DNA from: Nautiliaceae bacterium
GTDB taxonomy: Bacteria > Campylobacterota > Campylobacteria > Campylobacterales > Nautiliaceae
Assembly: GCA_027035735.1 (NCBI GenBank)
Contig: JALVUH010000079.1
Coordinates: 1 to 38,016 of the forward strand
DNA: 38,016 nt
Direction of reading: 5' to 3'
Below are positions 15,527 through 32,012 of the stretch, one piece after another (the first letter of the stretch is position 1; each line of letters begins with the position of its first letter). The position numbers were made by a program, and so were the translations under genes. The notes below the pieces were generated by a model. The model ran no database searches, had not been told where the DNA came from, and worked only from the letters and a program-made list of their open reading frames with translations.

Positions 15527-15920
15527 TTTAATGTTGTTAGTATCGTTTTTGTTTGCAGATTCAATTCATTGGATGAAAGATTATAAAAAGGCATTTGAGC
15601 TTGCAAAAAAAGAACACAAATTACTTTTTGTGGATATTTCTGTGCATCATTGTCCTCCTTGCTGGTATTTAGCAAATATTGTTTATAAATATCCTCCTGT
15701 TATTAAGTATATTAATAAACATTTTATTCCAATTTTTTATTATGCAGATACAGATAGAGTACCAATTGCATTTTCTCCTTATTTTACAGGTGCGGCTCCA
15801 AATGTATTGTTAATTACTCCTGATGACAAGCTATATTATAGGATCTTGGGTTCTCGTCCTGCTAAAATCTTTTTAGAAACAATTAAAAATATTAATCAAA
15901 AATATCAAAAAGGTAAATAA
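15507..15920 (+). CDS. periplasmic thioredoxin-fold protein with CPPC active site (paralog A)
   Basis: Signal peptide, then KEHKLLFVDISVHHCPPCWYL. Roughly 40-50% identical by eye to the 32013..32435 product. The TAATG junction overlaps ccdA by 1 nt. Confidence 0.8.
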   Translation: MKKLLVSLMLLVSFLFADSIHWMKDYKKAFELAKKEHKLLFVDISVHHCPPCWYLANIVYKYPPVIKYINKHFIPIFYYADTDRVPIAFSPYFTGAAPNVLLITPDDKLYYRILGSRPAKIFLETIKNINQKYQKGK

Positions 15921-16609
15921 TGGAAAATTTAGTCTATTCTTTATTCAATTATTTTGATTCTATGCCTTTTATTGTTAGTTTGGTAGCAGGACTTTTGTCA
16001 TTTTTTTCCCCTTGCGTTTTACCAATGGTTCCTATTTATTTTTTTTATATTACAGGAATTAGTGCGAAAGAACTTGAAAATAGAGAATTAACTCCAAAAG
16101 AGAGACTTAAAATTTTAATAAATTCAAGTTTATTTATTGCAGGATTTGCTCTTGTTTTTGTTCTTATTGGGGCTGCTGCTGCTAATTTAATAGGAAATAT
16201 TTTTGCTTATAAGTGGATAAATATAATTGCTGGAATAATTATTATAATTTTTGGTATAAATGTTGGAGGCTTTGTTAAATTTAAATTTATGCAATACGAA
16301 AAAAAAATAAATTTTCAAAATGCTGGAAGTTTTCTTTTAGGAGTTTCTTTTGCATTTGGTTGGACTCCATGTATTGGACCTATTTTTGGGACAATTGTAG
16401 GTATGGCTGCTACAAATCCTGCAAAAAGCATTACTATGATGATTCTTTATGTAATAGGTCTTGCAATACCATTTATTTTGATGGCTATATTTACTATTTG
16501 GAGTATGAAATTAATTGAAAGAACAAAAAAATATATGGGAATTATTGAAAAAATAAGTGGTGTGTTTTTAATAATAGTAGGTATTTGGGTATTATTTAAA
16601 GGATTTTAA
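15920..16609 (+). CDS. ccdA: cytochrome c biogenesis thiol-reductant transporter CcdA (DsbD-beta family)
   Basis: Six TM segments with the two conserved Cys-Pro motifs FFSPCVLPMVP and GWTPCIGPIFG. Confidence 0.9.
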   Translation: MENLVYSLFNYFDSMPFIVSLVAGLLSFFSPCVLPMVPIYFFYITGISAKELENRELTPKERLKILINSSLFIAGFALVFVLIGAAAANLIGNIFAYKWINIIAGIIIIIFGINVGGFVKFKFMQYEKKINFQNAGSFLLGVSFAFGWTPCIGPIFGTIVGMAATNPAKSITMMILYVIGLAIPFILMAIFTIWSMKLIERTKKYMGIIEKISGVFLIIVGIWVLFKGF

Positions 16610-16618
16610 AGGAGTAAT

Positions 16619-17461
16619 ATGAAAAAATTTGTAATAAGCGGAGTAGCTGTTTTATTTTTAATAGGATGTGCTAATACAAATATTAATGTAAATAAAAGTG
16701 TAAATCAAAATATGAAAATTATAAAAATAGATAATAAATTAATGAATAAATATCATGTAACAACTAGTGATTTAATTAATTTCGGTAAATATTATATATT
16801 TTTTACACCAGGACCAAATGGAACTGAGATTATATTTTTAGATAAAAATTATAATTTTGTGAAAAAATTTACTACTCCATATTTGCTTGAAACTAAAAAA
16901 ATAGATGTTTATAATGGAGATATCTATATTTTAGGGGTTGATGAAAATGATTATTATCCTGTTTTATTAGTGGTAGATGAAAGTGGTAAATTAAAGAAAA
17001 AATATATAATTCATAAAAAATATGCTTTACCAAAAGATTTGTATTTTGAGAAAAATAATAATTATGTTTTAGTTGATGTATTTAAAAATGGAAAAAGTTA
17101 TATTGAAATTTATAAAAATGGAAAACTTTTGAAAAAAATAGAATTAAATCATTCAATTAACGGAAATTTTGTATTTAAAGATGGAAAAGATTTGTTTGTT
17201 ATTGGAACTATAAAAAATACTACTCAAGATGCTTTTATTATAAATGTAACAAAAGGTTGGATTAGATTTTTTGATTTAGGAATGGATGAAAATTTTGATA
17301 AATATCAAATAAAAAATGGAGAAATAATTTTAGAGCTTCATTCTACAGATGAAATGGGGGCAGATAGTTATTATGAAATTATTATTGATAAAAATGGAAA
17401 AATATTAAAAAATAAATGCAAAGTTAAATTTAATCCATTACCTTTGAGATTTAGAACTTAA
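16619..17461 (+). CDS. lipoprotein of unknown function with internal beta-rich repeats
   Basis: Lipobox FLIGCAN. A recurring unit, hydrophobic run then D/Y-K/E-N/S-G-K-L/I-x-K-K (VVDESGKLKKKY, IYKNGKLLKKI, IIDKNGKILKNK; degenerate FLDKNYNFVKKF), suggests 4-5 repeated beta units. No family recognised. Confidence 0.6.
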   Translation: MKKFVISGVAVLFLIGCANTNINVNKSVNQNMKIIKIDNKLMNKYHVTTSDLINFGKYYIFFTPGPNGTEIIFLDKNYNFVKKFTTPYLLETKKIDVYNGDIYILGVDENDYYPVLLVVDESGKLKKKYIIHKKYALPKDLYFEKNNNYVLVDVFKNGKSYIEIYKNGKLLKKIELNHSINGNFVFKDGKDLFVIGTIKNTTQDAFIINVTKGWIRFFDLGMDENFDKYQIKNGEIILELHSTDEMGADSYYEIIIDKNGKILKNKCKVKFNPLPLRFRT

Positions 17462-17463
17462 TT

Positions 17464-17472
17464 TGCTATAAT
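17464..17472 (+). promoter_or_regulatory. extended -10 promoter element (TGcTATAAT) for the small cytochrome c gene
   Basis: TGCTATAAT lies 32 nt upstream of the ATG at 17504 in the 42-nt intergenic gap. AGGAG RBS at 17493-17497. Confidence 0.4.
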
Positions 17473-17503
17473 ATTATTTGAATCTTGCAAAAGGAGAAAA
17501 AAT

Positions 17504-17740
17504 ATGAAAAAATTTTTATCATTAGTGGCTTTTGGTGCTATGGCGTTTGCTTATCAAAATTGTGCAATGTGTCATAATGGTGGTATGGCAATTAAACTTG
17601 ACAAATTAACTCCTGCTCAAATTGAAGCAAAATTGAAAGAATTTAAAGCAGGAAAAGGTAATCCTATGATGGTTAATATCGCTAAAAGTATGAGCGATAA
17701 AGAAATAGCAGAAGCTGCTAAAAAATATGGGAAAAAATAA
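17504..17740 (+). CDS. small monohaem class I c-type cytochrome (c553-like)
   Basis: Signal peptide, a single CAMCH haem-binding motif near the mature N-terminus, and a candidate distal Met in GNPMMVNIA. About 60 aa mature. Confidence 0.8.
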   Translation: MKKFLSLVAFGAMAFAYQNCAMCHNGGMAIKLDKLTPAQIEAKLKEFKAGKGNPMMVNIAKSMSDKEIAEAAKKYGKK

Positions 17741-17759
17741 TTTCCCTTTTTATTTTTTT
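17729..17759 (+). terminator. rho-independent terminator of the cytochrome c gene
   Basis: GGGAAA (17729-17734) pairs with TTTCCC (17741-17746) around a 6-nt loop containing the stop codon. It is followed by TTTTTATTTTTTT. Confidence 0.65.
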
Positions 17760-17792
17760 AAAATTTTAGTGTCAAAGATTATTATTTAAAAT

Positions 17793-17812
17793 AAAAAAAG
17801 CCCAAAAAGGGC
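17793..17812 (-). terminator. weak rho-independent terminator of haoA
   Basis: The minus strand reads GCCC-TTTTT-GGGC followed by TTTTTTT, starting 8 nt after the haoA stop. The stem is only 4 bp, so confidence is low. Confidence 0.4.
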
Positions 17813-17819
17813 ATGAGAA

Positions 17820-19358
17820 TTATTCGTGAGTAACAACTGGCATTGGAGGTTCGTTTTCAAGAACTTTTTTAGCATCATGATATTTTTTATACATTTTCAT
17901 TCTGTAGTTGTAAATATCATTCATTTCTCTAATGTCTTGCATTACTTCAAATACACCGTGCCAGTGTGCATAATCTGGGCTTCCCATTGCTGCACCTTGT
18001 CTAAATCTTCTTCCTTCATGATGCCATAGATAATAATAAAGTTTGAAGAATGGATCGCTCCATACATCTGATCTTATTAAACCTCTTTCTTTTAAATCTT
18101 TCATCATTTTATTAGCGTAAGCTCTATATTCATTATATACTTTAACTGCTGCATCTACTCTTTGGAAATAGTTATTTACAAATGTTACTTCGTGACAAGT
18201 CATACATACTTTTTTCATTGCAGCTCTTGCTGCTTCAGGACCTGCAGGGTTACCAGTTTTTGGATTACCTCTAATTACAGTTTTACCACCTATAATTTTT
18301 CCTCCACCTTTCCAGAATGCCCAACCAGCAGTTTCATGTCCTCCAGTTCTTAAGAAGCTTTTTGGTGCCCAAAGATTCCATTTAAGTCTAAGTGATACGT
18401 TGTGAGTTGCTTTAAGACCATTAATTCCACTCATATGACATGTGAAACATGTAGGACCTCTTAAAGTTTTACCAGGGATTTGAGCTCCAGTATTAAAGTT
18501 ATAATCTTCATGATTTGTATCAAAAATATGTCCATGAACACTTGATTCGAATATTTCTTTATCTGGATGGTCTGGTCCTAAGTGACAGTTTGAACATGCT
18601 GCAGGTTGTCTAGCTTCAGCTGCAGAGAATTTATGTCTGCTATGACATGCTAAGCAGTTTCCAACACCTCCATCTGGATACAATGAAGCAATACCATCGT
18701 TTGGCCAAGTTGTAGGATCTGGAACTCCGTTTTTATCAAGTTTGATTGTTGTTCCGTGACATTGGATACAGGTATTTGCAACATTTAGGTTTGCAAGTCT
18801 TGGATTAGCTTGATTTGCTCTATAAAATTTTGAATCGTGTCTTATTCCTTTATCCATTTTTGTAGCACTAAATCCATTTAATGAAGGATTTTTTCCTTTT
18901 AAGCTTTCATAATTGTATGCAAGTTTACTCATAAGGAAACCATGTTTGCTACCATTAATAGCAAGCCATTGAGCACCACCTCTTGCGTGTCCAGAATTTA
19001 GATATTCAATAACTTCTTTTGCGTGACATTTTGCACAAGTTACAGATGAAACTGCGATTTGAACTGTCCAATTTGGTCCTTGATAAGGATGGTTTTTAAA
19101 TGCTGTTGGATAGTCTTTTGGTACTACGTGACATTGAACACAGCCAACTCCAGCTTTTGCATGTTTAGAATGTTCCCAGTCTGATACAATACCTGGGTCC
19201 ATAGTTTTGTGACACATTAGACATTGTTGATTACTTACACCTTTTGGGTGGAAGTTTTTAAGTTTTACATAGTTTGGATTTGAATCTAAGCTGTTTGCTG
19301 CAAATGCTGTTGAAGCGATTGCTGCAATGCTTAGTCCTGCTGTAAGTGTTTTTTTCAT
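17820..19358 (-). CDS. haoA: octahaem cytochrome c of the hydroxylamine oxidoreductase family (epsilon-Hao type, probable nitrite/hydroxylamine reductase)
   Basis: Sec signal peptide. Exactly eight CXXCH motifs (CLMCH, CVQCH, CAKCH, CIQCH, CLACH, CSNCH, CFTCH, CMTCH) and no CXXCK. The C-terminal helical region (WHHEGRRFRQGAAMGSPDYAHWHG) is Hao-like. The ATG at 19358, 5 nt after AGGAG, is preferred over the GTG at 19364 in the ORF track. Confidence 0.8.
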   Translation of the reverse strand: MKKTLTAGLSIAAIASTAFAANSLDSNPNYVKLKNFHPKGVSNQQCLMCHKTMDPGIVSDWEHSKHAKAGVGCVQCHVVPKDYPTAFKNHPYQGPNWTVQIAVSSVTCAKCHAKEVIEYLNSGHARGGAQWLAINGSKHGFLMSKLAYNYESLKGKNPSLNGFSATKMDKGIRHDSKFYRANQANPRLANLNVANTCIQCHGTTIKLDKNGVPDPTTWPNDGIASLYPDGGVGNCLACHSRHKFSAAEARQPAACSNCHLGPDHPDKEIFESSVHGHIFDTNHEDYNFNTGAQIPGKTLRGPTCFTCHMSGINGLKATHNVSLRLKWNLWAPKSFLRTGGHETAGWAFWKGGGKIIGGKTVIRGNPKTGNPAGPEAARAAMKKVCMTCHEVTFVNNYFQRVDAAVKVYNEYRAYANKMMKDLKERGLIRSDVWSDPFFKLYYYLWHHEGRRFRQGAAMGSPDYAHWHGVFEVMQDIREMNDIYNYRMKMYKKYHDAKKVLENEPPMPVVTHE

Positions 19359-19387
19359 TTTCACTCCTTTTTGACTATCTCTTTAAA

Positions 19388-19418
19388 ATTGTATTAAATT
19401 TATGTGTCTTAAAAGTGC
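19388..19418 (-). promoter_or_regulatory. putative haoA promoter: GCAC-N7-ACAC direct repeat, 10-nt gap, TACAAT -10
   Basis: Minus strand reads GGCACTTTTAAGACAC (19419->19404), ATAAATTTAA, then TACAAT (19393->19388). The -10 ends 30 nt before the ATG. It has the same architecture as the element at 31326..31356. Confidence 0.4.
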
Positions 19419-19443
19419 CAAAAGGAGTAAAGGTAGAAAATTT

Positions 19444-19788
19444 TTAATATTTTCCTTTAAGAGAGCCAAAGTAGTTAATTTCTTCTGCTTTTTTTTCTTT
19501 ATTAAGTTCTTCTACAGTTTTTTCAAAATCAATCTCTTCCATCATTTTATCTAACTCTTCTTCGCAGTAACTCATATGCATATCAGCACTTATTATATAA
19601 GGCATCTCTTCAATCTGTCTTAGTTTTTCTATTTCTTCTTCTACACATTCACCTTCAATTGTAATTATTATAATACCTCTTTTTTTATCTCCAAAATGAA
19701 CATCACAAAGTTCACTCTCTTGTAAATTTAGCCATACAGCATCATAATTTTCAGGTTTTGTTTTAACAATAATACTTGATATATTCAT
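19444..19788 (-). CDS. napD: NapD, NapA-specific chaperone
   Basis: Small acidic protein at the end of the nap operon. The preferred start is the ATG at 19788, which forms an ATGA overlap with the napL stop and follows AAAGGAG. The ORF-track start at 19809 is probably a spurious extension. Confidence 0.8.
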   Translation of the reverse strand: MNISSIIVKTKPENYDAVWLNLQESELCDVHFGDKKRGIIIITIEGECVEEEIEKLRQIEEMPYIISADMHMSYCEEELDKMMEEIDFEKTVEELNKEKKAEEINYFGSLKGKY

Positions 19789-20747
19789 TTTTTCTCCTTT
19801 AATTTCCAAATTATTATTTCACTTGGTGAATAACTAATTATTGTATTTTCATTTAAAAATTTCATATTAATAAGGGGCATTTGGTGACCTTTTAGTAAAA
19901 ATAGAGGTTTTCCATATATAGTTGAGACTAAAATATTATTATTTTCATCATATTGAAGTGCAAATTTATCTAATTTTGGAGATAGGGCTACTGCATAAGG
20001 CAAGAATTTATCATCCATTTTATAGACCATATTTTTTGTATTTATATCATATATAGCTACTCTTTTATCATCGCTTCCATTAATTACATAATTTTTTACA
20101 AAATCAAGAGCAATTGTTTTATTTTTATTGTATCCCATTAAATCTTCTATTTTTTTACCTGTTTGTGTATTTACAATATGTGCTACTCCGCTTTCATCTC
20201 CAATTACTGCTTTAGTCTTATTTTCATTAAGAGCAAATGTAGAAAATACATAATTTCCTATTTGATTATCATATAAAAATTTTTTGGTTTTTAGATTATA
20301 AAGTAAAACTTCATCACTTAAAAGAGCTAAAAAAATTTCATTATTATTAATATATCTTGCTTGCATAAATAATTTTTTTGATTGAAAATATTTAGTTATT
20401 TTTTTTGTTTTAAAATTATATATAGATAAAATTCTTGTAGCGTTTTCTCCTTGAGTTAAGATTAAAAGATTTTCACCATTTGGGGATATATCAAGTGAAT
20501 AAATCGGCATTGCCATTAAATTTCCCATAAAATCATGAATTTTTGGCAATGTTATTTCAGATAATTTTTTATTTGTTTTAAAATCATTAATTAAAATATG
20601 ACCATTTTCAAGTCCTACTATTAAATATTTTTTATTGAAAGCTACTTTTGAAATATAATAGTTATATCTATAAAATTTATAAGGTTTTAGTGTAGACAAT
20701 GAAAATGCAAATACTATACTCATTAATAATAAAAATAATTTTTTCAT
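19785..20747 (-). CDS. napL: NapL, periplasmic beta-propeller-like nitrate reductase accessory protein
   Basis: Signal peptide and repeated beta-strand blades (ISPNGENLLIL, DESGVAHIVNTQTGKKI). Its position between napF and napD is characteristic of epsilonproteobacterial napAGHBFLD. Confidence 0.75.
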   Translation of the reverse strand: MKKLFLLLMSIVFAFSLSTLKPYKFYRYNYYISKVAFNKKYLIVGLENGHILINDFKTNKKLSEITLPKIHDFMGNLMAMPIYSLDISPNGENLLILTQGENATRILSIYNFKTKKITKYFQSKKLFMQARYINNNEIFLALLSDEVLLYNLKTKKFLYDNQIGNYVFSTFALNENKTKAVIGDESGVAHIVNTQTGKKIEDLMGYNKNKTIALDFVKNYVINGSDDKRVAIYDINTKNMVYKMDDKFLPYAVALSPKLDKFALQYDENNNILVSTIYGKPLFLLKGHQMPLINMKFLNENTIISYSPSEIIIWKLKEKK

Positions 20748-20756
20748 TTTATCTCC

Positions 20757-21233
20757 TTAAACTATCTTCACTTCTATGGCATAAGTAGGACATACACTTA
20801 TACAAAATCCACAAGCTGTGCATTTATCTAAATCAATGATAGGGTTAAACATTCCTTTGTATATTATAGCATTTTCTTCGCATATATCTTGACAAGAAAA
20901 ACACATAGTTTGATTCCATGCAAGACAAGTTTTAGGATTTATTAAAAATTCAGCATTAAGTTTATTTTTTTTATTTTTTATATTTAATACATCTTTAGGA
21001 CAAGCGATTGCACATTCATCACAAAATGTACATCCGTTTATCCCAAATTTAATCGCTGGTTTTTCTTCTTCAATTTCAATAATTTTTTCAGGACATGCTT
21101 TTATGCAAGGTTTATCTTCACATTCAAGACACTTTAAAAAATCTTCTTTTTTTTCAAAATAGGGAGGATAAATAAAAGATTTAAAAGGAGAAGAGACTCT
21201 CCTAAAAAGATTTCTTTTGCTTTTGTCTATCAT
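20757..21233 (-). CDS. napF: NapF, cytoplasmic poly-ferredoxin
   Basis: Four Cys clusters (CLECEDKPCIKACP, CTFCDECAIACP, CFSCQDIC, CTACGFCISVCP). No signal peptide. ATGA overlap with napB. Confidence 0.85.
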   Translation of the reverse strand: MIDKSKRNLFRRVSSPFKSFIYPPYFEKKEDFLKCLECEDKPCIKACPEKIIEIEEEKPAIKFGINGCTFCDECAIACPKDVLNIKNKKNKLNAEFLINPKTCLAWNQTMCFSCQDICEENAIIYKGMFNPIIDLDKCTACGFCISVCPTYAIEVKIV

Positions 21234-21739
21234 TTCATTCCTACACTAGCTTTCATAGATTCAAATCTATTTTCAACTACAGGATTAAGTTTAGCTTGAG
21301 GAGCATGGCAAGTTGTACAGAAATATCTACTACCAGCTACTCTTCTCACATGTTTTCCATTTTCAAAATTATCAACAAAATGATCAGGTGGCATAGGAGT
21401 AACACCTAAAGCTTTTGCATTTTGTGGTAAGTGACAATTTAGACACATATTATTGTGAACAGTAATTGGAACCATACCTTTAATACTATGAGGAATCATT
21501 GGAGGTGCTGTTACATAAGAAGTTTTATAAAGTTTAACTTTTCCAGGAATTGGAGGTTGATTGTTATATTGAACAACAGGTAAATTTTGTGAATCTTTTT
21601 CAAGTCCAGCTTTTCTAATACCGGTGATTTTTACAGGCTTTTCTGAAACAGTATTATTATTTGCAGATGTCATTTTTTGATTACATCCAGTTAATAATAA
21701 AAGTGCAGTTGCTGCACTAATTAGAGCTATTTTTTTCAT
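21230..21739 (-). CDS. napB: NapB, dihaem cytochrome c subunit of periplasmic nitrate reductase
   Basis: Two CXXCH motifs (CLNCH, CTTCH) with typical NapB spacing. The N-terminal signal ends in a lipobox-like LLTGC. RBS AGGAG upstream. Confidence 0.88.
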   Translation of the reverse strand: MKKIALISAATALLLLTGCNQKMTSANNNTVSEKPVKITGIRKAGLEKDSQNLPVVQYNNQPPIPGKVKLYKTSYVTAPPMIPHSIKGMVPITVHNNMCLNCHLPQNAKALGVTPMPPDHFVDNFENGKHVRRVAGSRYFCTTCHAPQAKLNPVVENRFESMKASVGMK

Positions 21740-22562
21740 TTTTTTCTCCTTTTATAAAATTTCTAAGTGAAAATTTTAAAGCATTATCTTCACATACCTC
21801 AATACATCTTCCACAATTTGTACATTCTATTCCTGTAATATAATCATCTTTTTTATTAATTACAGGTCCTAAAACTTGAGCTTCTGGACATACCATGAAG
21901 CAATTTCCGCAGTTTGTGCAATTTTCTTTTGTATGATATACGCGGATTATATTTTTAGCTCCTATTAGGCTATACATTGCGCCTACAGGACAAATATGTC
22001 CACACCATCCATTTTTAAGAACAAATGCATCAAAAATAAAAATTACTAAAAGCCATACCCATCCAAATCCTAAAGTAAACGCAACTCCTCTTGTAAAAAT
22101 TCCTATAGGATTTATAAATTCATATGCTGCTGCACCTATAATTGTTGAAAAAATAAGCATTGCAATCAAAAATGCATATCTAAATTTTTTGATTTTCATT
22201 GCACTTACTAAGTTATCTTTTTCATGATGGGTTTTTCTTCTAACCCATGCAGCTAAATCTGTAATTAAATTTACAGGACATACCCAGCTACAATAAGCTC
22301 TTCCTCCAATAATTCCATAAAAAAGCAATACTACAATTAATCCAATAATCAAATTTGAACTAATTACAGCTCCTGCAAATAACATTTGTAAAAATGCATA
22401 AGGGTCAGTTAATGGAATAGTATTAAATAATTTTGAAAAACTTAAATTTCCAATTAATACTTTCCATCCATAATAATTTGCTCCAAAATATAAAAACAAA
22501 ATTAAAAATTGTGTAATACGTCTAAGGATAAGATATCTATTTTTTGTAATTAATTTAATCAT
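21717..22562 (-). CDS. napH: NapH, membrane quinol dehydrogenase subunit
   Basis: Four TM helices, two CX3CP motifs (CSWVCPVN, CGHICPVG), and a C-terminal 2x[4Fe-4S] region (CTNCGNCFMVCP, CTNCGRCIEVC). Confidence 0.9.
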   Translation of the reverse strand: MIKLITKNRYLILRRITQFLILFLYFGANYYGWKVLIGNLSFSKLFNTIPLTDPYAFLQMLFAGAVISSNLIIGLIVVLLFYGIIGGRAYCSWVCPVNLITDLAAWVRRKTHHEKDNLVSAMKIKKFRYAFLIAMLIFSTIIGAAAYEFINPIGIFTRGVAFTLGFGWVWLLVIFIFDAFVLKNGWCGHICPVGAMYSLIGAKNIIRVYHTKENCTNCGNCFMVCPEAQVLGPVINKKDDYITGIECTNCGRCIEVCEDNALKFSLRNFIKGEKNEKNSSN

Positions 22563-23370
22563 TCCAATTTACTCCCTGATTTAAGTTTTGAATAGGATTT
22601 TCGCTACTCCAAGGAGTTTTTGTTGTTGTTTTAGTGCTTGCATTTTTGACTCTTTGTTGGTCTTGTTTGCTCCATCCTTTGACGTATCTATTGCTAACTT
22701 TACCAAGAAATACTTCTCTTGGAAAGATTTTAATAGCTGGTTTTTCAGTAATACATGCCATTTCGCACATTCCACATCCTGTGCAATACTTTTCATGAAC
22801 TACAGGTATTCTGTAGGCATGTTCTCCTGTTCTTTCATTTGGTTTCCATTCAATTGTAATTGCTTTATCCATTTCAGGACATGCTCTATAACATGCAGTA
22901 CATTGCAATCCCCAAAATGCAATACAACTACTAGGATCAATTACAGCAACACCCATTTTAGCGTAATCAATTGCTACTTCGCCTTTATCATTTTGACACT
23001 CTTTTGGAGTTAATGCCCCTGTAGGGCAAGCATACATACAAGGAATATCATCGCACATAAAACATGGCCCTGTTCTTGGATGAAAAAATGGTGTCCCAAT
23101 AGGAGCATTATCTCCCGGTGCTGCTAAATACAAAGTATCTATCTCTTTTCCATTAATAATCATTTTATTCTCTCTATTTTTGCAAGCGTCAACACATAGA
23201 CCACATCTAATACATGTTTTTATGAATTCTTTTTCAGGTAAAGCACCTGGAGGTCTAAGTGCTAAAGGTTTATCTTTATTTTCCTCCGCAAATGCACTTG
23301 CAATAGCACCAGCAGCAGTCGCTGCTGCTGATAGCTGAATTAGATTATTAAGGAATGTTCTTCTATCCAA
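22555..23370 (-). CDS. napG: NapG, periplasmic (Tat-exported) poly-ferredoxin
   Basis: Twin-arginine signal MDRRTFL. Four Fe-S motifs (CIRCGLCVDAC, CFMCDDIPCMYACP, CTACYRACP, CTGCGMCEMAC). Confidence 0.9.
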   Translation of the reverse strand: MDRRTFLNNLIQLSAAATAAGAIASAFAEENKDKPLALRPPGALPEKEFIKTCIRCGLCVDACKNRENKMIINGKEIDTLYLAAPGDNAPIGTPFFHPRTGPCFMCDDIPCMYACPTGALTPKECQNDKGEVAIDYAKMGVAVIDPSSCIAFWGLQCTACYRACPEMDKAITIEWKPNERTGEHAYRIPVVHEKYCTGCGMCEMACITEKPAIKIFPREVFLGKVSNRYVKGWSKQDQQRVKNASTKTTTKTPWSSENPIQNLNQGVNWND

Positions 23371-23378
23371 AATATCTC

Positions 23379-26198
23379 CTATGCTTTATAAATTTTAACT
23401 GCTGATTTTTTATAATCTGTTTCTTTACTTAATGGACAAGTTGCATCAAGTGTACATTTATTAATTAATATTTTTTCATCAAACCATGGAAGCATTACAA
23501 GACCTCTTGGAGGTTTATTTCTACCTCTTGTTTCAATTCTTGCTTTAACTTTTCCTCTTCTAGATTCAATAACTACTAAATCAAATCTTTCAAGACCTAG
23601 CTCTTTTGCATCTTCAGGATTCATGTATAATAATGCTTCTGGCATTGCACGATATAATTCTGGAACTCTCATAGTCATAGTTCCTGTATGCCACTGTTCA
23701 AGAACTCTTCCTGTACATAGCCAGAATTTATATCCTTTTGTATCATATTTAGGATCTTCCGGATGCACCATAAACGGTCTCCAGAATATTTTTGCTTTAT
23801 TTGGTAATGGATATTTTTTATGAGTTTTAGGACCTTTTAAATCACCTTTTGGAATTGCTTTAAGAAGTGGTCCATAAAATGCAAATTTATCACCAGGTTT
23901 TGCATATTTTCTTGCATATGGGTCATAATTTACATTGAATCTCCATTTTGTTTCATGTCCATTTACTACTGGCCATCTAAGTCCTCTTACTTTTTGATAT
24001 GTATCAAAGTCTGCTAAATCATGACCTCTACCAAGACCAAATTTTCTATATTCTTCCCACATAGCTTTTTGGATAAAGAAACCATATCCTTTAAATACTT
24101 TACCATCACTTCCTACAACATTTCTGAAATCTCCCTCAGCTTCAGTATTTGGATGCATTCTACCGCCTTCATCTCTAGCAATTGGATCTGGCCATGGGAA
24201 ATTTTTGCGGTATTCTTCTCTATTAAATAATACATCAAATAATGTATCTTCTGGAGAATAACCCATTGCTTTTGCTTCTTCTAATACATCTGGTAAGACT
24301 GTTCCATCAGGAAGTTTCCATTCATGCCATACTTCTTTTAATTTAAATCTTTTAGCAAATTCTGTTAATTGCCATAAATCAGGCATTGCTTCACCAGGTG
24401 CTATTACTTGTTGTCTCCAATGTTGAGTTCTTCTCTCAGCATTACCATAAGCTCCCCATTTTTCATAAATCATAGCAGATGGCAATACTAAATCAGCTAC
24501 TCTTGGAGATACTCCTGGATAACAATCACTAACTACAATGAAGTTATCCATAGTTCTTGCTGCTTTTAACCAGTGATTTGCATTTGCTGTATCTTGCCAA
24601 GGGTTATTTACTTGAGCCCATACCCATTTTAAATTACCAGCTTCAAGTTCTCTCATCATTTTTACATAATGATATCCAACTTTTGGATTAATTGTTCCAT
24701 GAGGAATTTTCCATAATTTTTCTGCTATTCTTCTGTGTTTAGGATTTGCTACAAGTAAATCTGCTGGAAGTCTGTGAGCAAATGTTCCAACTTCTCTTGC
24801 AGTACCACAAGCACTAGGTTGACCTGTAAGAGAGAATGCTCCATTTCCAGGTTCTGATTGTTTTCCAAGAAGTAGATGAATCATATAAATTTGTTCATTA
24901 ACCCAGCTTCCTCTAACATGTTGGTTGAATCCCATTGTCCAGAAAGATATTATTTTTCTGTTTGGATCACAATATAAATCAGCTAATTTTTTAAGTTTTG
25001 CTTTAAAGCTTTCAAGTGATTCGTCTTTATCACCTTTTGCTACTTTTGCTACATAATCAAGTGTATATGGTTCAAGTCCTTTTTTGAATTCTTCAAATGT
25101 AATTTCCCAATGTTTGAATGGGCCTTTTCCATTGGCATGTTTCATATACATAATATCTCCGGCTTTCCATTTACCAATTGGGCTAAGTGCTATACCTTCT
25201 TCTTCTGTTACTACTTTTTCAACTTGTTTTTCTACAGTATCTTTTTCTTTTGGAGTTACATATGGTGAATTTGGATTTCTCATACCATATCCAATATCAG
25301 GGAAACCTGTTGCAAATACTGTGTATTTTTTAACAAAATCCCAATTTACTTTATTTCTATGAACAATTTCTCTTGCGATATAGTTCATAATTGCAAGGTC
25401 AGTATTTGGTCTAAAAATAATTTCCATATCTGCAAGGTTTGAACATCTGTTTCTGTAAGTTGAAAGGTTAACTATATAATATTTATCTGGATTATTTAGT
25501 TTTGCATCAGATACCCTTGCCCATAGAATAGGATGCATTTCTGCCATATTAGCACCCCAAGTAATAACAGTATCAGTAAGTTCAATATCATCATAACAAC
25601 CAGCTGGTTCATCAATTCCAAATGTTTGATAAAATCCAACAACTGCACTTGCCATACAGTGTCTTGCATTTGGATCTAAGTTATTACTTCTCCATCCAGC
25701 TTTTACTAATTTTTCTGCTACATAACCTTCTTCAATTGTATATTGACCCGAACCAAAGATACCTATTGATGTTGGTCCATATTTGTTATAGTATTTTTTA
25801 AATTGTCTTTCCATTTCATCAAATGCTCTTTTCCAGCTAACAGGTCTAAATGGAGCATTTTTATCAAATTCACCATTTTCATTTAATCTAAGTAACGGTT
25901 GAGTTAATCTATCAGCACCATACATAATTTTGGCATTAAAATAACCTTTAATACAGTTAATTCCTCTATTAACTGGATTTAGAGGGTCACCTTTTACTGC
26001 TACACATTTATTATCTTTTGTAGCAATCATAATACCACATCCAGTTCCACAAAATCTACAAACAGCTTTGTCCCAGTGCCAGCCTTGTTGAGCTTCTTCA
26101 GCTTGTGCTTTTGCATCTTCTGGGATAGATAATCCTACAGCGCTTGCTGCTGCAACTGCTGCGGTTGTTTTAAGAAAATCTCTTCTATTCATTGACAT
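23379..26198 (-). CDS. napA: periplasmic nitrate reductase catalytic subunit NapA (Mo-bisMGD, [4Fe-4S])
   Basis: Tat signal [21 protein letters not shown]-terminal cluster motif CRFCGTGCG. About 940-aa molybdopterin oxidoreductase with NapA-like sequence throughout. AGGAG lies 6 nt before the ATG. Confidence 0.96.
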
Positions 26199-26285
26199 AT
26201 TTCACTCCTTTTGGGATTTTAACAATATTATGATAACTCTTTTACAGTCTTTAAACAAGTTTTTAAGTTAAATTTAAGTAAAAAA

Positions 26286-26300
26286 GCACTTATAAGGCAC
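26286..26300 (+). promoter_or_regulatory. GCAC-N7-GCAC direct repeat in the napA/modA divergent region
   Basis: AGCACTTATAAGGCAC, with half-sites starting at 26286 and 26297 (11-bp spacing). It ends 10 nt upstream of the TTGACA -35 of the mod promoter and lies ~90-100 nt upstream of the napA ATG. Confidence 0.4.
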
Positions 26301-26310
26301 TTTTTTTAAA

Positions 26311-26339
26311 TTGACATTATTTTGAATTTAATATACAAT
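26311..26339 (+). promoter_or_regulatory. sigma-70-type promoter of the mod operon leader
   Basis: TTGACA (26311-26316), a 17-nt spacer, then TACAAT (26334-26339). The predicted TSS near 26346 gives a ~150-nt leader. Confidence 0.6.
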
Positions 26340-26345
26340 TATCAA

Positions 26346-26497
26346 AAAGGGTTTCGAGCTATATTTCCTAAGGCTTAAGCTATGGAGGTATAGCCGATAG
26401 GGTTTAATTTGAAAAAATTAAGCCTCCCGAGTTGGAAAGAAACCCTGCCTCCATAAAGGCTTTATTTCCACTCGGGAGAGCCTTTATGGAGGATAAA
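26346..26497 (+). promoter_or_regulatory. structured 5' leader, probable molybdenum-cofactor (Moco) riboswitch with an SD-sequestering helix
   Basis: Complementary segments: 26349-26355/26439-26445 (GGGTTTC/GAAACCC), 26371-26378/26418-26425 (AGGCTTAA/TTAAGCCT), hairpin 26379-26394, 26424-26431/26471-26478 (CTCCCGAG/CTCGGGAG). There is also a perfect 13-bp helix, 26448-26460/26480-26492 (CCTCCATAAAGGC/GCCTTTATGGAGG), that buries the modA GGAGG. Elements such as GCCUCCCGAG, GGAAAG and AAAGGC, and the position before modA, fit the Moco motif as I recall it. Confidence 0.55.
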
Positions 26498-27205
26498 ATG
26501 AAAAAATTTTTATTTTTTATTTTAAGTGTTAGTTTATTTGCTTCTCAAATATATGTAGCAGCTTCTGCTAATCTTACATATGTAATGCCAAGTATTGTTA
26601 AAGCTTTTAATAAAAAATATCCAAATATAAAAGTTAGATTTATAACTTCAAGTAGTGGTAAGCTTACAGCTCAAATTTTGAGAGGAGCTCCTTATGATAT
26701 TTTTTTATCTGCTAATATGAAATATCCAAAATTTCTTTATTCAAAAGGAATAGGGATTTTACCTCCTCAAATTTATGCAAGAGGGAAAATAGGTCTTTTT
26801 TCTCTTAAATATAAAAATTTATCGTTAAAAAATCTTTCAAATTATAAAACTATAGCCATTTCAAAACCTCAAACAACTCCTTATGGAAAAGCAGCGGTTG
26901 AAGCATTTAAAAATTCTAGTATTTATTCTAAAATAAAAGATAAATTAGTATATGCAGAAACAATTCCTGCTGTAATTTCTTATGTAAAAAATGGAGCTGA
27001 TGTGGGTGTTATAAGTAAATCTTTAATTTATTCAAATAATATAAAAAGAATGAAATTTTATTACAAAGATATAAATACATCACTTTATAAACCAATTAAT
27101 CAGGCCGAATTGTTAATTAGTAAAAATTTAGATGCTAAAAAATTTTATCAATTTTTATTAACGAATAAAGCAAGAAAAATATTTAAAAAATTTGGATATC
27201 AATGA
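26498..27205 (+). CDS. modA: molybdate ABC transporter periplasmic binding protein ModA
   Basis: The ATG at 26498 lies 5 nt after GGAGG. Signal peptide MKKFLFFILSVSLFA. Motifs AASANLTYVM and SSSGKLTAQI are typical of ModA. The ORF-track TTG start at 26432 lies inside the structured leader and is rejected. Confidence 0.88.
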   Translation: MKKFLFFILSVSLFASQIYVAASANLTYVMPSIVKAFNKKYPNIKVRFITSSSGKLTAQILRGAPYDIFLSANMKYPKFLYSKGIGILPPQIYARGKIGLFSLKYKNLSLKNLSNYKTIAISKPQTTPYGKAAVEAFKNSSIYSKIKDKLVYAETIPAVISYVKNGADVGVISKSLIYSNNIKRMKFYYKDINTSLYKPINQAELLISKNLDAKKFYQFLLTNKARKIFKKFGYQ

Positions 27206-27567
27206 ATATAATTATCTCAAAGTTAAAAAACATCAAAAGTTTAGATAATTTAAATTTATTGTATTTTGAAGAGGTAAAAGTTTTGATTTTACAAATGAAT
27301 TTAGATATTAAAATTAATCAAAAAGCAAAACTTTATATAAAACCTACAAAGCTTTTTTTAAGTAAAGAAAAGTGTGAATTTGAAAATAGATTAAAAGTTA
27401 ATATCAAAAATATAACAAAGGGAGAAATTTTAGCTTCTATTATATGTGAATATAAAAATTTTGAAATAGAAGTTATAATGCTAAAAGAGTGTATAAATTT
27501 TGAAAATGAAGCATATTTATATTTTAAAGCAAGTGATATTTCTATTGTAGAGGTAATAAATGATTGA
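27202..27567 (+). CDS. stand-alone TOBE/Mop-like (molybdate-binding fold) protein
   Basis: 121 aa, ATGA overlap with modA. The C-terminal half (NRLKVNIKNITKGEILASIICEYKNFEIEVIMLKE...AYLYFKASDISI) resembles a TOBE beta-barrel. I recall a gene in the same slot of the Campylobacter mod locus. Confidence 0.55.
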   Translation: MNIIISKLKNIKSLDNLNLLYFEEVKVLILQMNLDIKINQKAKLYIKPTKLFLSKEKCEFENRLKVNIKNITKGEILASIICEYKNFEIEVIMLKECINFENEAYLYFKASDISIVEVIND

Positions 27568-28237
27568 TTTTACTCCTTTTATTTTATCTTTTAAGTTAGC
27601 TTTTATAGTAACATTGATTTTACTTTTTATAGGTATTCCATATGCATGGTATCTTTCAAATACAAAATCAAAAATCAAACCTTTTTTAGAGACTATTACC
27701 GCTCTTCCTATAGTATTACCTCCTTCTGTTTTAGGGTTTTATTTACTTGTATTTTTATCTCCTGATTCTTTTTTGGGAGGAGTGGTGTATAAATTATTTC
27801 ATTTAAAATTGGTTTTTTCTTTTCCAGGGCTTGTAGTAGCAAGTAGTATTTACTCTTTTCCTTTTATGATTCAGCCTATTCAGAGTGGATTTGATACGTT
27901 AAATAAAAATATTATTGAAGCTTCTTATCTTAGTGGAAAGAGTAGATTAACTACACTTTTTAAAGTTATATTGCCAAATATAAAATCTTCACTTCTTACG
28001 GCGATTGTTATTACATTTGCTCATACTATAGGAGAATTTGGAGTAGTTTTAATGGTTGGAGGATCAATTCCAGGTAAAACAGAGGTTGCTAGTGTGGCAA
28101 TTTATGATTATGTTGAAAATTTAGATTATCATTCAGCTCATATATATAGTGCAATTTTACTTATAATTAGTTTTTTGGTGTTGTTTTTTGTATATTTTAT
28201 AAATCATAATCAAAGAAAGAGATATGATTTATATTAA
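27560..28237 (+). CDS. modB: molybdate ABC transporter permease ModB
   Basis: Five TM helices with the EAA-type loop (IIEASYLSGKSRLTTLFKVILP). Confidence 0.9.
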   Translation: MIDFTPFILSFKLAFIVTLILLFIGIPYAWYLSNTKSKIKPFLETITALPIVLPPSVLGFYLLVFLSPDSFLGGVVYKLFHLKLVFSFPGLVVASSIYSFPFMIQPIQSGFDTLNKNIIEASYLSGKSRLTTLFKVILPNIKSSLLTAIVITFAHTIGEFGVVLMVGGSIPGKTEVASVAIYDYVENLDYHSAHIYSAILLIISFLVLFFVYFINHNQRKRYDLY

Positions 28238-29096
28238 TGTTAGAAAAAAGTTAAGTGGTGTAATTGAAAATATGGAGTTGGAATTTAAATTAAATATTAA
28301 AAAAGGGGAGTTTTTAGCAATTATAGGAGAGAGTGGTAGTGGAAAAACTACACTTCTTAGAATTATTGCAGGCCTTGAAAAAAGTGAAGGTGAAATAATA
28401 GTAGATAAAGAAATATGGCAAAATGAAAAAATTTTTTTACCTCCTCAAAAAAGAGAAATTGGATTTGTTTTTCAAGATTTTGCGCTTTTTCCTAATATGA
28501 ATGTTTTAGAAAATTTATTATATGTAAAAAATGATAAAGATTTAGCTAATCATTTATTAAAAATTAGTGGTATAGAAAATTTAAAAAATAGATATCCAAA
28601 TACTCTTAGTGGAGGTCAAAAACAAAGAGTAGCACTTGCTAGAGCTTTGATGAGAAAGCCTAAAATTTTGCTTTTAGATGAACCTTTTTCTGCACTTGAT
28701 GAGAAAAGAAGAGAAGATTTACAAGATAGATTATATTTTTTTCATAAAGAATTTGATTTAACTACAATAATGGTTAGTCATTCTTCAAGTGAAGTATATA
28801 AATTAGCAGATAATTTGGTAGAATTAAATTATGGAAAAATAAAAAGATATGGAAATGCTAAAAAACTTTTGATAAATTCAAAAACAAGTGAAAAATTTAC
28901 AATAAGAGGAAAGCTTATTGATATAATAAAAGCAGATATTATAAATATTGCAGTAGTGAGTGTGGGGAATAATATTATTGAATGTGTAATATCTCAAAAT
29001 GAAGCAAAAAATTTAAAAATTGGAGATAATGTAATACTTTCAACGAAAGCATTTCATCCAAATATAAGGGTTATTAATGAGAATATTATTAGTTGA
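28224..29096 (+). CDS. modC: molybdate ABC transporter ATPase ModC with C-terminal TOBE domain
   Basis: Walker A GESGSGKTT, signature LSGGQKQRVALARAL, Walker B LLLDEPFSALD, and a C-terminal TOBE-like beta domain (FTIRGKLIDII...IGDNVILSTKAFHPNI). Confidence 0.9.
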   Translation: MIYINVRKKLSGVIENMELEFKLNIKKGEFLAIIGESGSGKTTLLRIIAGLEKSEGEIIVDKEIWQNEKIFLPPQKREIGFVFQDFALFPNMNVLENLLYVKNDKDLANHLLKISGIENLKNRYPNTLSGGQKQRVALARALMRKPKILLLDEPFSALDEKRREDLQDRLYFFHKEFDLTTIMVSHSSSEVYKLADNLVELNYGKIKRYGNAKKLLINSKTSEKFTIRGKLIDIIKADIINIAVVSVGNNIIECVISQNEAKNLKIGDNVILSTKAFHPNIRVINENIIS

Positions 29097-29727
29097 AGAT
29101 GATGAGTTTATTGGTGAATCAATAAAAGAGTATTTAGAGATGCAAGATAATAGGGTAGATTACTATTCTTCTCCAATAAAAGCATTAGAAGAAGTATATC
29201 CAGATCATTATGATATTTTTTTATTGGATATCAATATGCCAGAGATGAATGGATATGAACTTTACAAAGAACTTAAAAATTATGCAAAAGATGTGCCAGT
29301 TATTTTTATAACTGCTTATTCAGATATAGATCATGTAGAAAAAGCATTTGATTTAGGAGCTGCTGATTATATAAAAAAACCATTTGAGCTTAAAGAGCTT
29401 GAACTTAGAATTAAAAGACTTGTTTTTAAAAATACAAATGAAATTAAGATTACACAAAATTATAAATTTGACTTAGATAAATTGAAACTTTTTTATAAAG
29501 ATGAAGAGGTTGATTTAACTCAGAATGAAAAATATTTTCTTGAAATGCTTGTTAAAAATATAGGGCAAGTAGTGGAGCTTGAGAGACTTAAAGATTATGT
29601 ATGGGATGGAAAAGATATTTGTAATAATACAATAAGAACTCAAGTTAAAAAATTAAGAAATAAATTACATGAAAATTTCATTAAAAATATAAGAGGTATT
29701 GGATATAAGATTGAGAAGTTCAAGTGA
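29077..29727 (+). CDS. OmpR/PhoB-family response regulator
   Basis: Receiver domain (ILLVEDDE..., phospho-acceptor in DIFLLDINMPEMNG, conserved K in YIKKPF). C-terminal winged-helix DNA-binding domain (TIRTQVKKLRNKL...IRGIGYKI). The start overlaps modC by 20 nt. Confidence 0.9.
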   Translation: MRILLVEDDEFIGESIKEYLEMQDNRVDYYSSPIKALEEVYPDHYDIFLLDINMPEMNGYELYKELKNYAKDVPVIFITAYSDIDHVEKAFDLGAADYIKKPFELKELELRIKRLVFKNTNEIKITQNYKFDLDKLKLFYKDEEVDLTQNEKYFLEMLVKNIGQVVELERLKDYVWDGKDICNNTIRTQVKKLRNKLHENFIKNIRGIGYKIEKFK

Positions 29728-31336: not shown

Positions 31337-31356
31337 GCACACTATCTATTTATAAT
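31326..31356 (+). promoter_or_regulatory. putative promoter of the NapC/NrfH-type cytochrome gene: GCAC-N7-GCAC direct repeat, 10-nt gap, TATAAT
   Basis: AGCACTTTTTAAGCAC (half-sites at 31326 and 31337), ACTATCTATT, then TATAAT (31351-31356). The -10 ends 25 nt before the ATG at 31381. The first half-site lies in the last codons of the kinase gene. Confidence 0.45.
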
Positions 31357-31380
31357 ACAAATTAAAAAAAGGTAAAGCTT

Positions 31381-31938
31381 ATGGCAAGTAAAAAAGCTAT
31401 TTGGGGTTCTCTAATTTGTGGCGTTATTATTGGGCTTGGGTTGGCTTATGTAGCTGCAGTAGCAGTAGAAGAGACTGGAAAACCTGAATTTTGTATGAGC
31501 TGTCATGAAATGAAGCCAATGGCAGAAACTTTTGAAATTAGTGTTCATGGAGGTAATAATCCTCAAGGATTTGCTGCAACTGAATGTACCGATTGTCATT
31601 TACCGCACAATTCAATTGCTGGATATTTAGTAATGAAAGGTATTAGCGGGACAAGAGATTTTCTAGCTCATATTGGATTAATTCACAAAGTAGATTTTAA
31701 AGAAAATTTCAATGAAATGCAAAATTATGTATATGATAGTGCATGTTTAAAATGTCATAAAGGTATAAGAGATCCTGAACATGCAATAGGACTTAGTGAA
31801 AATATTAAAAAAATACATGAAGAGTTTTATTGGAAACCAAAAAATGAAGGACAAAATGTTAGCTGTGTAGAATGTCATAATGACAGAATAATGACTCATT
31901 TTGCTCATCCTAATCTTTTAGAAGTTCTTTCTGAATAA
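31381..31938 (+). CDS. membrane-anchored tetrahaem cytochrome c, NapC/NirT/NrfH family (candidate quinol dehydrogenase partner of epsilon-Hao)
   Basis: N-terminal TM anchor (IWGSLICGVIIGLGLAYVAAVAV). Four CXXCH motifs (CMSCH, CTDCH, CLKCH, CVECH). 185 aa, typical of the family. Confidence 0.88.
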   Translation: MASKKAIWGSLICGVIIGLGLAYVAAVAVEETGKPEFCMSCHEMKPMAETFEISVHGGNNPQGFAATECTDCHLPHNSIAGYLVMKGISGTRDFLAHIGLIHKVDFKENFNEMQNYVYDSACLKCHKGIRDPEHAIGLSENIKKIHEEFYWKPKNEGQNVSCVECHNDRIMTHFAHPNLLEVLSE

Positions 31939-31984
31939 TTTTCTTCTTTTTTTTCTTTTTTTTGTAAATTTAGCATTAAATTTA

Positions 31985-31993
31985 TGTTAAAAT
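31985..31993 (+). promoter_or_regulatory. extended -10 element (TGtTAAAAT) upstream of the thioredoxin-like/ccsBA genes
   Basis: TGTTAAAAT lies 20 nt upstream of the ATG at 32013, after a long T-rich tract. Confidence 0.3.
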
Positions 31994-32012
31994 ACCTAAA
32001 AAAAGGGTAACC

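Follow-up and report, generated by a model that had tools for sequence, protein, structure and literature searches.

The window analyzed here is a 38,016-nt stretch of DNA (~28% G+C) from a Nautiliaceae bacterium, contig C79 of a metagenome-assembled genome (MAG) of 1.34 Mb in 206 contigs that is 86% complete. It carries the periplasmic nitrate reductase genes napAGHBFLD and, behind napD, the gene hao (haoA), whose predicted product is an octaheme cytochrome c of the epsilon-Hao type. The explanation that we consider likely is that a bacterium without nrfA carries out nitrate ammonification by way of Nap and epsilon-Hao, that hao is a transcription unit of its own, and that the genes of the pathway share a regulator repeat.

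In the proposed pathway, NapAB would generate nitrite from nitrate, and the secreted Hao would reduce nitrite (and hydroxylamine) in the periplasm, which would complete nitrate ammonification. Nap would receive electrons from menaquinol via NapGH. Hao would most likely be supplied via CycB, a membrane-anchored tetraheme cytochrome encoded 12 kb away and a likely menaquinol dehydrogenase, and the monoheme cytochrome c encoded next to hao possibly shuttles electrons to it. The position of hao behind napD would reflect the gathering of the whole pathway in one ~19-kb island. A repeat with 11-bp phasing, GCAC-N7-RCAC, appears to fill the -35 region of the hao and cycB promoters, 10 nt upstream of the -10 box. 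The OmpR/PhoB-type response regulator encoded in the island most likely binds these repeats and turns on nap, hao and cycB together; some hao transcript may also come from nap by read-through, which would be dispensable. We infer the electron path, the identity of the regulator and the signal to which it responds.

Family placement of the octaheme protein

The preliminary description of the window had reported a signal peptide and exactly eight CXXCH motifs in the 512-amino acid (aa) protein, and both were confirmed by motif count and by the N-terminus. The motifs lie at residues 48, 75, 110, 199, 237, 257, 306 and 387 (514-aa frame), and the protein begins with what reads as a Sec-type signal peptide, MKKTLTAGLSIAAIASTAFA/A. 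In the database, too, the protein has 512 aa, and one close match is labelled Lebetimonas sp. JH292. Orthologues that are 73-90% identical occur in 28 of the 30 family genomes, among them the Hao of a Nautilia profundicola-like genome (G022), with 79% identity over residues 2-514.

A profile built from 19 homologues was searched against the whole PDB (E<=0.01), alongside a single-sequence PDB search. The best profile matches were IhOCC of Ignicoccus hospitalis (4qo5, 5.9e-64) and HAOr of Kuenenia (6h5l, 4.6e-42), followed by weaker matches to NeHAO of Nitrosomonas (1fgj, 1.4e-32), KsHOX (4n4j, 1.2e-29) and HDH (6hif, 4.5e-21). One NrfA match was marginal (0.0028), and no Otr, MccA or ONR chain was returned at this threshold. 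The single-sequence search returned HAO-family chains only. The segment after heme 8, used as a C-terminal profile against the PDB, aligned only with IhOCC (1.4e-8) and HAOr (6e-4) and not with the oxidative HAOs. Among 1.84 billion proteins, 1279 relatives were found, and the best 150 of these stop short of the oxidative HAOs. By these profiles the protein is a member of the HAO family, epsilon-Hao subgroup, and is nearest to the two reductive structures, IhOCC and HAOr. The family assignment made in the preliminary description is thus upheld; placement with tetrathionate- or sulfite-type reductases, named beforehand as the result that would speak against it, was not seen in the PDB profile search.

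The Hao of N. profundicola is without the cross-linking tyrosine in the published alignment (PMC2628731), and four epsilon-HAOs without this residue acted in vitro as reductases of both nitrite and hydroxylamine (Haase et al. 2017, as reported in PMC8042395). Homology to these characterized proteins predicts nitrite and hydroxylamine reductase activity for the Hao of the window. Ammonium is reportedly the product of the purified epsilon-HAOs.

One relative (G003) has a second, tandem hao downstream of the first (L067, G003:C1:60000-77000), which is spread over two reading frames, is 75-79% identical to the window protein and is probably a frameshifted duplicate. The same locus has a second monoheme cytochrome c gene.

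Nitrite reductases and the fate of nitrite

Six-frame searches for other nitrite reductases covered all 30 family genomes, including the MAG of the window, and control genomes were detected for PF02335. The window had been described as free of NrfA-type, copper-type and cd1 nitrite reductases; this was borne out and extends to the whole 1.34-Mb MAG, where NrfA, NirK, NirS and NIR_SIR all remained without a match. NrfA (Pfam PF02335) and NirK were found in 0 of the 30 family genomes, and NirS gave one marginal cd1-like match in one relative. All three were absent from the 15 of 15 high-quality relatives. By CXXCH count, the multiheme frames of the MAG are Hao (8), the NapC/NrfH-like CycB (4), a 115-aa tetraheme frame on contig C109, and NapB (2). 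The C109 frame (G000, C109:6352-6696, plus strand) has four CXXCH motifs, is cytochrome c3-like, and is the only other multiheme candidate in the genome.

A pathway of this kind has already been published (PMC2628731, PMC3701875), and the gene inventory is present in all Nautiliales genomes (Waite et al., PMC5401914). During growth of N. profundicola on nitrate, the haoA transcript rose 8.5-fold and the cycB transcript 7.1-fold in published work. For that organism a strict reverse hydroxylamine:ubiquinone redox module (reverse-HURM) was proposed, in which Hao yields free hydroxylamine and a cytoplasmic hybrid-cluster protein (Har/Hcp) makes the ammonium, and its har, hao and cycB transcripts are induced by nitrate (PMC2628731, PMC3701875). 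Hcp, the proposed hydroxylamine reductase, was found in 26 of the 30 family genomes, in 15 of 15 high-quality genomes and in 8 of 9 congeners. Although this distribution fits the reverse-HURM, purified epsilon-HAOs are described as reducing both nitrite and hydroxylamine in vitro (PMC8042395), and hcp was not found in the 86%-complete MAG, where it probably lies on a missing contig. The two routes are not mutually exclusive. We regard the strict form as unlikely, while leaving it real weight, and favor reduction of nitrite by Hao in the periplasm.

Position of hao relative to nap

The nap genes occupy positions 19444-26198 of the minus strand, and neighbors overlap by up to 23 nt or are separated by up to 9 nt (open reading frame list). 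The order napA-G-H-B-F-L-D, with NapGH as quinol dehydrogenase and without napC, is that of the epsilonproteobacterial Nap system. The start of napD is probably the ATG at 19788, which gives a 4-nt ATGA overlap with napL. From the napD stop to hao there are 85 nt if hao starts at ATG (19358) and 79 nt if it starts at GTG (19364). The ATG is conserved in the relatives and the GTG is not, and one relative carries TGA in place of the GTG; the hao product is therefore taken as 512 aa and the gap as 85 nt. The tight nap cluster followed after 79-85 nt by the octaheme gene is as the preliminary description had it, with 85 nt preferred. Contigs of four vent metagenome runs cross the napD-hao junction, three of them without differences, so the junction is not an assembly chimera, and near-identical DNA occurs in hydrothermal-vent metagenomes. 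Some contigs of two runs (X2 and X3) match the window up to the hao start (~19369) and then continue into unrelated sequence. This suggests co-occurring strains with other DNA upstream of hao, for example the inverted form known from two congeners.

In a locus comparison across all family genomes, hao came next after napD and in the same orientation in 18 genomes of four genera. In 4 genomes, including two of the window's own genus (G015 and G019), hao is inverted in place and convergent with napD. In 5 others, including G022 and G023, the 1.5 kb upstream of hao contain no napD; the group of hao, cytochrome c and ccdA in G022 is ~685 kb from nap. These results indicated that the adjacency of hao and nap is a family trait, conserved by synteny as a neighborhood and not as an operon.

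A probable dedicated hao promoter

Upstream of hao lies the element (T)GGCAC-TTTT-N-RR-ACAC, followed by 10 nt, TAnAAT, ~20 nt and a GGAG ribosome-binding site. Phylogenetic footprinting found GCAC-N7-RCAC-N10-TAnAAT ahead of hao in all relatives whose upstream DNA was readable, the inverted and nap-unlinked copies included. The promoter-like element that had been noticed in the gap is thus real and conserved. Scanned for a sigma-70 consensus, the gap gave no promoter on the hao strand, because a -35 hexamer is lacking and the repeat stands where it would be. A sigma-54 reading of the TTGGCAC in the gap was rejected, with the GG not conserved (AAGCAC in some relatives) and the -12 GC missing. 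Since the promoter is kept even where hao is inverted or unlinked, hao appears to be an autonomous transcription unit run from its own conserved promoter.

The opposing explanation is that hao closes a napAGHBFLD-hao operon and is transcribed mainly by read-through from nap. It draws on the shared strand (18 of 27 family genomes), the 85-nt gap with no hairpin between napD and hao, and the nap and multiheme cluster of a cable bacterium, which is expressed together (bioRxiv 10.1101/2020.02.22.960823). However, the features of a single operon, conserved co-orientation and the absence of a hao promoter, were not found: a dedicated promoter stands in all readable relatives, and hao is inverted in 4 genomes (two of the same genus) and without a nearby napD in 5. 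In a read-through RNA (19359-19460), moreover, the hao Shine-Dalgarno sequence would be paired with ACUCCUUUU, a segment right behind the napD stop (-20 kcal/mol, z = -3.4), although this anti-Shine-Dalgarno segment is not conserved. RNA from the hao promoter itself would be without it. As a mechanism in its own right the hairpin was set aside: significant as the fold is in this strain, relatives do not conserve the anti-Shine-Dalgarno segment, and the pairing may be fortuitous. We consider the operon improbable. Read-through may occur here, as no terminator was found in the gap, yet it seems evolutionarily dispensable.

The preliminary description had hao appended to nap as a contiguous module. 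The adjacency stands, and an obligate nap-hao transcription unit does not. The comparison thereby corrects the assumption that hao is an extension of the nap operon.

A shared repeat at the nap, hao and cycB promoters

The cycB promoter has the same architecture as the hao promoter, and this architecture is kept in 26 of 26 relatives with upstream sequence available. At napA, the repeat GCAC-N7-GGCAC lies antisense to the gene, 96-113 nt before its start, in 16 of 18 islands, the window included. It is absent from the relative without the two-component system, and in one Lebetimonas genome the site grows to four GCAC units with 11-bp phasing. The strict core motif occurs twice in the 1.34-Mb MAG, at hao and cycB, against a mean of 0.25 in shuffled genomes. 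A generalized motif occurs four times, three of these at the hao, cycB and napA promoters, against a mean of 1.0. A scan of the hcp loci of two relatives did not find the repeat.

Direct repeats with a spacing of one helical turn are characteristic of OmpR/PhoB-type regulators. Genes for such a regulator and a histidine kinase stand immediately upstream of cycB in every island examined, and the sequence thus combines an 11-bp-phased repeat at the target promoters with a winged-helix regulator nearby. Co-regulation of nap, hao and cycB most likely acts through a shared operator and not through read-through. Linkage of hao to nap had been taken as a sign of co-regulated flux. Where there is co-regulation, the shared GCAC-N7-RCAC operator at the three promoters would account for it better than linkage. 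If this is true, the shared operator, and not operon structure, would hold the pathway together, and it would explain how hao could part from cycB, the gene that usually precedes it, and later be inverted or moved with its control kept.

We hold the identity of the regulatory system more tentatively. The Nautiliaceae may have a hitherto undescribed two-component system that responds to nitrate or nitrite, with an OmpR-type regulator and a kinase whose periplasmic domain matches no family; its regulator would bind the 11-bp-phased GCAC repeats and govern a three-promoter regulon of nap, hao and cycB. As a candidate new sensor domain, the periplasmic domain would perceive the signal to which these genes respond. 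The result is a concrete and testable control model in which one repeat, present at three promoters, is tied to one two-component system encoded nearby.

Co-occurrence of Hao and CycB

CycB, a membrane-anchored tetraheme cytochrome of the NapC/NrfH family, co-occurs with hao as in HURM-type systems. The cycB gene is present in 28 of the 30 family genomes and was lost together with hao in G018 (L061, G018:C3:8000-27999), a 99% complete congener. In G018, hao is reduced to ~105-aa fragments with stop codons, and cycB, the response regulator, the kinase, napG, napH, napF, napL, modA/B and the napA-promoter repeat are gone. NapH was found nowhere else in the G018 genome. The genes napA, napB, napD, cytochrome c, ccdA and ccsBA are kept. 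G018 is a natural knock-out, and the joint loss of these genes speaks for the putative partnership of Hao with CycB and for the putative link of regulator and repeat.

At least 595 relatives of Hao, from many phyla, came up in a scan of the GTDB species genomes, and 80 loci outside the family (L079-L158) were fetched for their context. Hosts were Desulfobacterota, Chloroflexota, Gammaproteobacteria, Verrucomicrobiota, Kiritimatiellia, Nitrospirota and Hydrothermarchaeota, and the proteins are 33-67% identical to the window Hao in most of the fetched loci. In ~61 of the 80, hao directly follows a NapC/NrfH-type gene of the same strand. Linkage to nap is rare among them; one Sedimenticola MAG has hao followed by napAB. 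Because the outside loci are mostly cycB-hao pairs with little nap linkage, the Nautiliaceae layout looks derived, with the pair separated, hao at the 3' end of nap, and both halves carrying the same operator. Judged by co-occurrence, co-loss and the shared promoter, the NapC/NrfH-type cytochrome is the probable conserved partner of Hao. Some of the outside Hao records are named 'beta-ketoacyl-ACP synthase' or 'hydrogenase', which are evident annotation errors.

Weighing of the proposed pathway

Several observations weigh against the combined explanation of Nap and epsilon-Hao ammonification, an autonomous hao and a shared regulator. With regard to the enzyme, the column of the cross-linking tyrosine (NeHAO Tyr467) could not be assigned from sequence, the alignment with oxidative HAOs ending at heme 8, and an AlphaFold2 model from 19 sequences was poor (mean predicted local distance difference test score, pLDDT, 60.5). 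With regard to the genome, the MAG is 86% complete, a missing contig could hide another nitrite reductase, and hcp was not recovered. With regard to transcription, hao is on the nap strand in 18 of 27 genomes, a terminator scan found no terminator-like hairpin in the 85-nt gap, and an RNA-run search found no run that contains the window sequence. With regard to control, the ~225-aa periplasmic domain of the kinase had no Pfam match even at E<=1, and binding of the response regulator to the repeats is argued from adjacency, repeat geometry and co-loss.

A role of Hao mainly in detoxification of nitrite, NO or hydroxylamine from Nap, without energy conservation, is improbable. A stress-defense role of NrfA in Wolinella is named in the title of a published paper, and Hao-family enzymes are described as acting on several N-oxides (PMC8042395). 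However, Hao is the sole nitrite reductase candidate in the family, apart from the marginal NirS-like match in one relative; members of the Nautiliaceae grow by nitrate ammonification, as published; and hao was lost together with the quinol dehydrogenases in G018. Very improbable indeed is an Otr- or MccA-type reductase or ONR outside nitrogen metabolism, which would likewise have eight hemes and would suit the sulfur-rich vent habitat: the whole-PDB profile gave HAO-family chains, IhOCC and one marginal NrfA only, and a motif scan of the protein found neither CXXCK nor CX15CH. Nitrate ammonification by Nap and epsilon-Hao thus remains the explanation that we prefer.

Gene neighborhood

The region 15920-34957 forms one ~19-kb island of ccdA, a 280-aa open reading frame (ORF), cytochrome c, hao, nap, mod, the two-component system, cycB and ccsBA (Table 1). 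The first two genes and the 78-aa cytochrome c are on the plus strand, and hao and napDLFBHGA are on the minus strand. The module had been bounded at 17820-26198. Adjacency within these bounds stands; the limit does not, as the likely electron donor CycB is encoded beyond it, beside the two-component system.

The 280-aa ORF between ccdA and the cytochrome c gene had no significant family match. The monoheme cytochrome c gene adjoins hao wherever the flank is visible, including the N. profundicola-like genome with hao far from nap, and its product is a candidate redox partner of Hao. It was described as convergent with hao with back-to-back terminators, and both hairpins with their T-runs were located, that of hao being weak. 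The terminator scan needs 5 pairs and so missed the 4-pair hao hairpin, which was read from the sequence.

Beyond napA, the mod genes follow a molybdenum cofactor (Moco) riboswitch in the order modA-(121-aa ORF)-modBC. Given the riboswitch upstream of it, modA probably starts at the ATG at 26498. If this holds, the cofactor would feed back on molybdate uptake for NapA by way of an element right beside the nap promoter.

Table 1 Features of the nap-hao island, with positions in the window.
Feature	Position	Strand	Evidence and remarks
ccdA	15920-16609	+	Reductant export for cytochrome c maturation; Pfam DsbD_TM E=9e-15; syntenic with cytochrome c gene and hao
Monoheme cytochrome c, 78 aa	17504-17740	+	One CXXCH; Pfam Cytochrome_CBB3 E=2.5e-5, just below cut-off; convergent with hao
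Terminator of cytochrome c gene	17729-17746	+	Hairpin and T-run; terminator scan
Intrinsic terminator of hao, weak	17793-17812	-	GCCC-TTTTT-GGGC then T7; 4 pairs; fold z = -1.9
haoA (epsilon-Hao octaheme cytochrome c)	17820-19358 (ATG) or 17820-19364 (GTG)	-	512 aa; eight CXXCH; HAO-family profile matches
hao promoter	19388-19418	-	Direct repeat GCACTTTTAAGACAC (19404-19418), 10-nt spacer, -10 box TACAAT (19388-19393)
napD	19444-19809	-	Chaperone; Pfam NapD E=1e-20, residues 8-84
napL	19785-20747	-	Periplasmic beta-propeller; generic WD40/beta-propeller Pfam matches only; named from conserved place between napF and napD
napF	20757-21233	-	Fe-S maturation protein; TIGR00402 E=1e-19, below cut-off; position kept in relatives
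napB	21230-21739	-	Diheme cytochrome c; Pfam NapB E=3e-31; two CXXCH
napH	21717-22562	-	Membrane subunit of NapGH quinol dehydrogenase; NF007013 349 bits, above cut-off of 234
napG	22555-23370	-	Ferredoxin-type subunit of NapGH quinol dehydrogenase; NF007012 302 bits, above cut-off of 269
napA	23379-26198	-	Periplasmic nitrate reductase catalytic subunit; TIGR01706 1348 bits and NF010055 1391 bits, both above cut-offs; Pfam TAT_signal
Repeat at napA promoter	26286-26300	+	GCACTTATAAGGCAC; antisense to napA, ~102 nt before napA ATG
Moco riboswitch	26340-26458	+	Upstream of modA; Rfam RF01055 77.8 bits, gathering score 36
OmpR/PhoB-type response regulator	29077-29727	+	Pfam Response_reg, Trans_reg_C; between nap (or mod) and cycB in all islands examined
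Sensor histidine kinase	29699-31336	+	HisKA and HATPase_c only; two transmembrane helices around ~225-aa periplasmic domain (hydropathy)
cycB promoter	31326-31356	+	GCACTTTTTAAGCAC, 10-nt spacer, TATAAT; same architecture as hao promoter
cycB (cM552-like NapC/NrfH-family tetraheme cytochrome)	31381-31938	+	Pfam Cytochrom_NNT E=1e-24; four CXXCH; N-terminal transmembrane anchor
Thioredoxin-like protein and fused CcsBA cytochrome c synthase (System II)	32013-34957	+	Pfam Thioredoxin_7, ResB, Cytochrom_C_asm; TIGR03144 above cut-off

Comparison with known systems

At deep-sea vents, the thermophilic Nautiliaceae are abundant as primary producers, and they keep nitrogen as ammonium without NrfA. 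The uncultured lineage represented by the window has the same Nap and epsilon-Hao pathway and adds one member more, with no new chemistry. Like NrfHA, the proposed system is a periplasmic multiheme nitrite ammonifier fed by a NapC/NrfH-type quinol dehydrogenase, but NrfA has five hemes and a CXXCK active site, whereas the Hao of the window has eight CXXCH motifs and no CXXCK.

By profile, the best structural relatives are IhOCC (4qo5) and HAOr of Kuenenia (Kustc0458, 6h5l), the only ones that align with the C-terminal domain. HAOr is without the Tyr-heme cross-link and works reductively, but it makes NO rather than ammonium and acts with a partner subunit. IhOCC is archaeal, and the similarity of the window Hao to both proteins is low and confined to local alignments.

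With regard to control, Pho-box-like OmpR/PhoB regulons are alike in the regulator gene beside its targets, the one-turn repeat spacing and the overlap with the -35 region. No described system was found to match the GCAC repeat or the kinase sensor domain. In the searchable literature, subscription papers apart, no statement was found on a hao promoter, a shared repeat, or the pattern of inversion, relocation and co-loss.

The layout of nap followed by a multiheme gene is not new, although the operon-level arrangement had been put forward as the noteworthy feature of the window. A preprint already describes a multiheme nitrite reductase candidate directly downstream of nap in Ca. Electronema sp. 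GS, in a cluster that its authors call syntenic with the epsilonproteobacterial genes for dissimilatory nitrate reduction to ammonium (bioRxiv 10.1101/2020.02.22.960823). The Ca. Electronema protein (pMHC) differs in that it belongs to a sister clade of epsilon-Hao, its nap order is napFDDAGHB, and neither a separate promoter nor a shared operator was described for it. The Campylobacter-type Hao is shorter (~450 aa) and ~46% identical, and its gene lies directly after a NapC/NrfH-type gene.

The epsilon-Hao proteins of N. profundicola (NAMH_1280), Caminibacter mediatlanticus, Campylobacter fetus and C. curvus share the eight CXXCH motifs and the Sec signal peptide with the window protein (PMC8042395, PMC2628731, PMC3701875). 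In N. profundicola, hao lies beside a monoheme c552 gene and ccdA, and cycB lies near resB and nap (Campbell et al., PMC2628731). The N. profundicola-like genome is like the window in its Hao (79% identity), in the absence of nrfA, and in the presence of nap, a NapC/NrfH-type cytochrome, a monoheme cytochrome c and ccdA. In N. profundicola and Nautilia sp. PV-1, however, the group of hao, cytochrome c and ccdA is far from nap, whereas hao in the window abuts napD.

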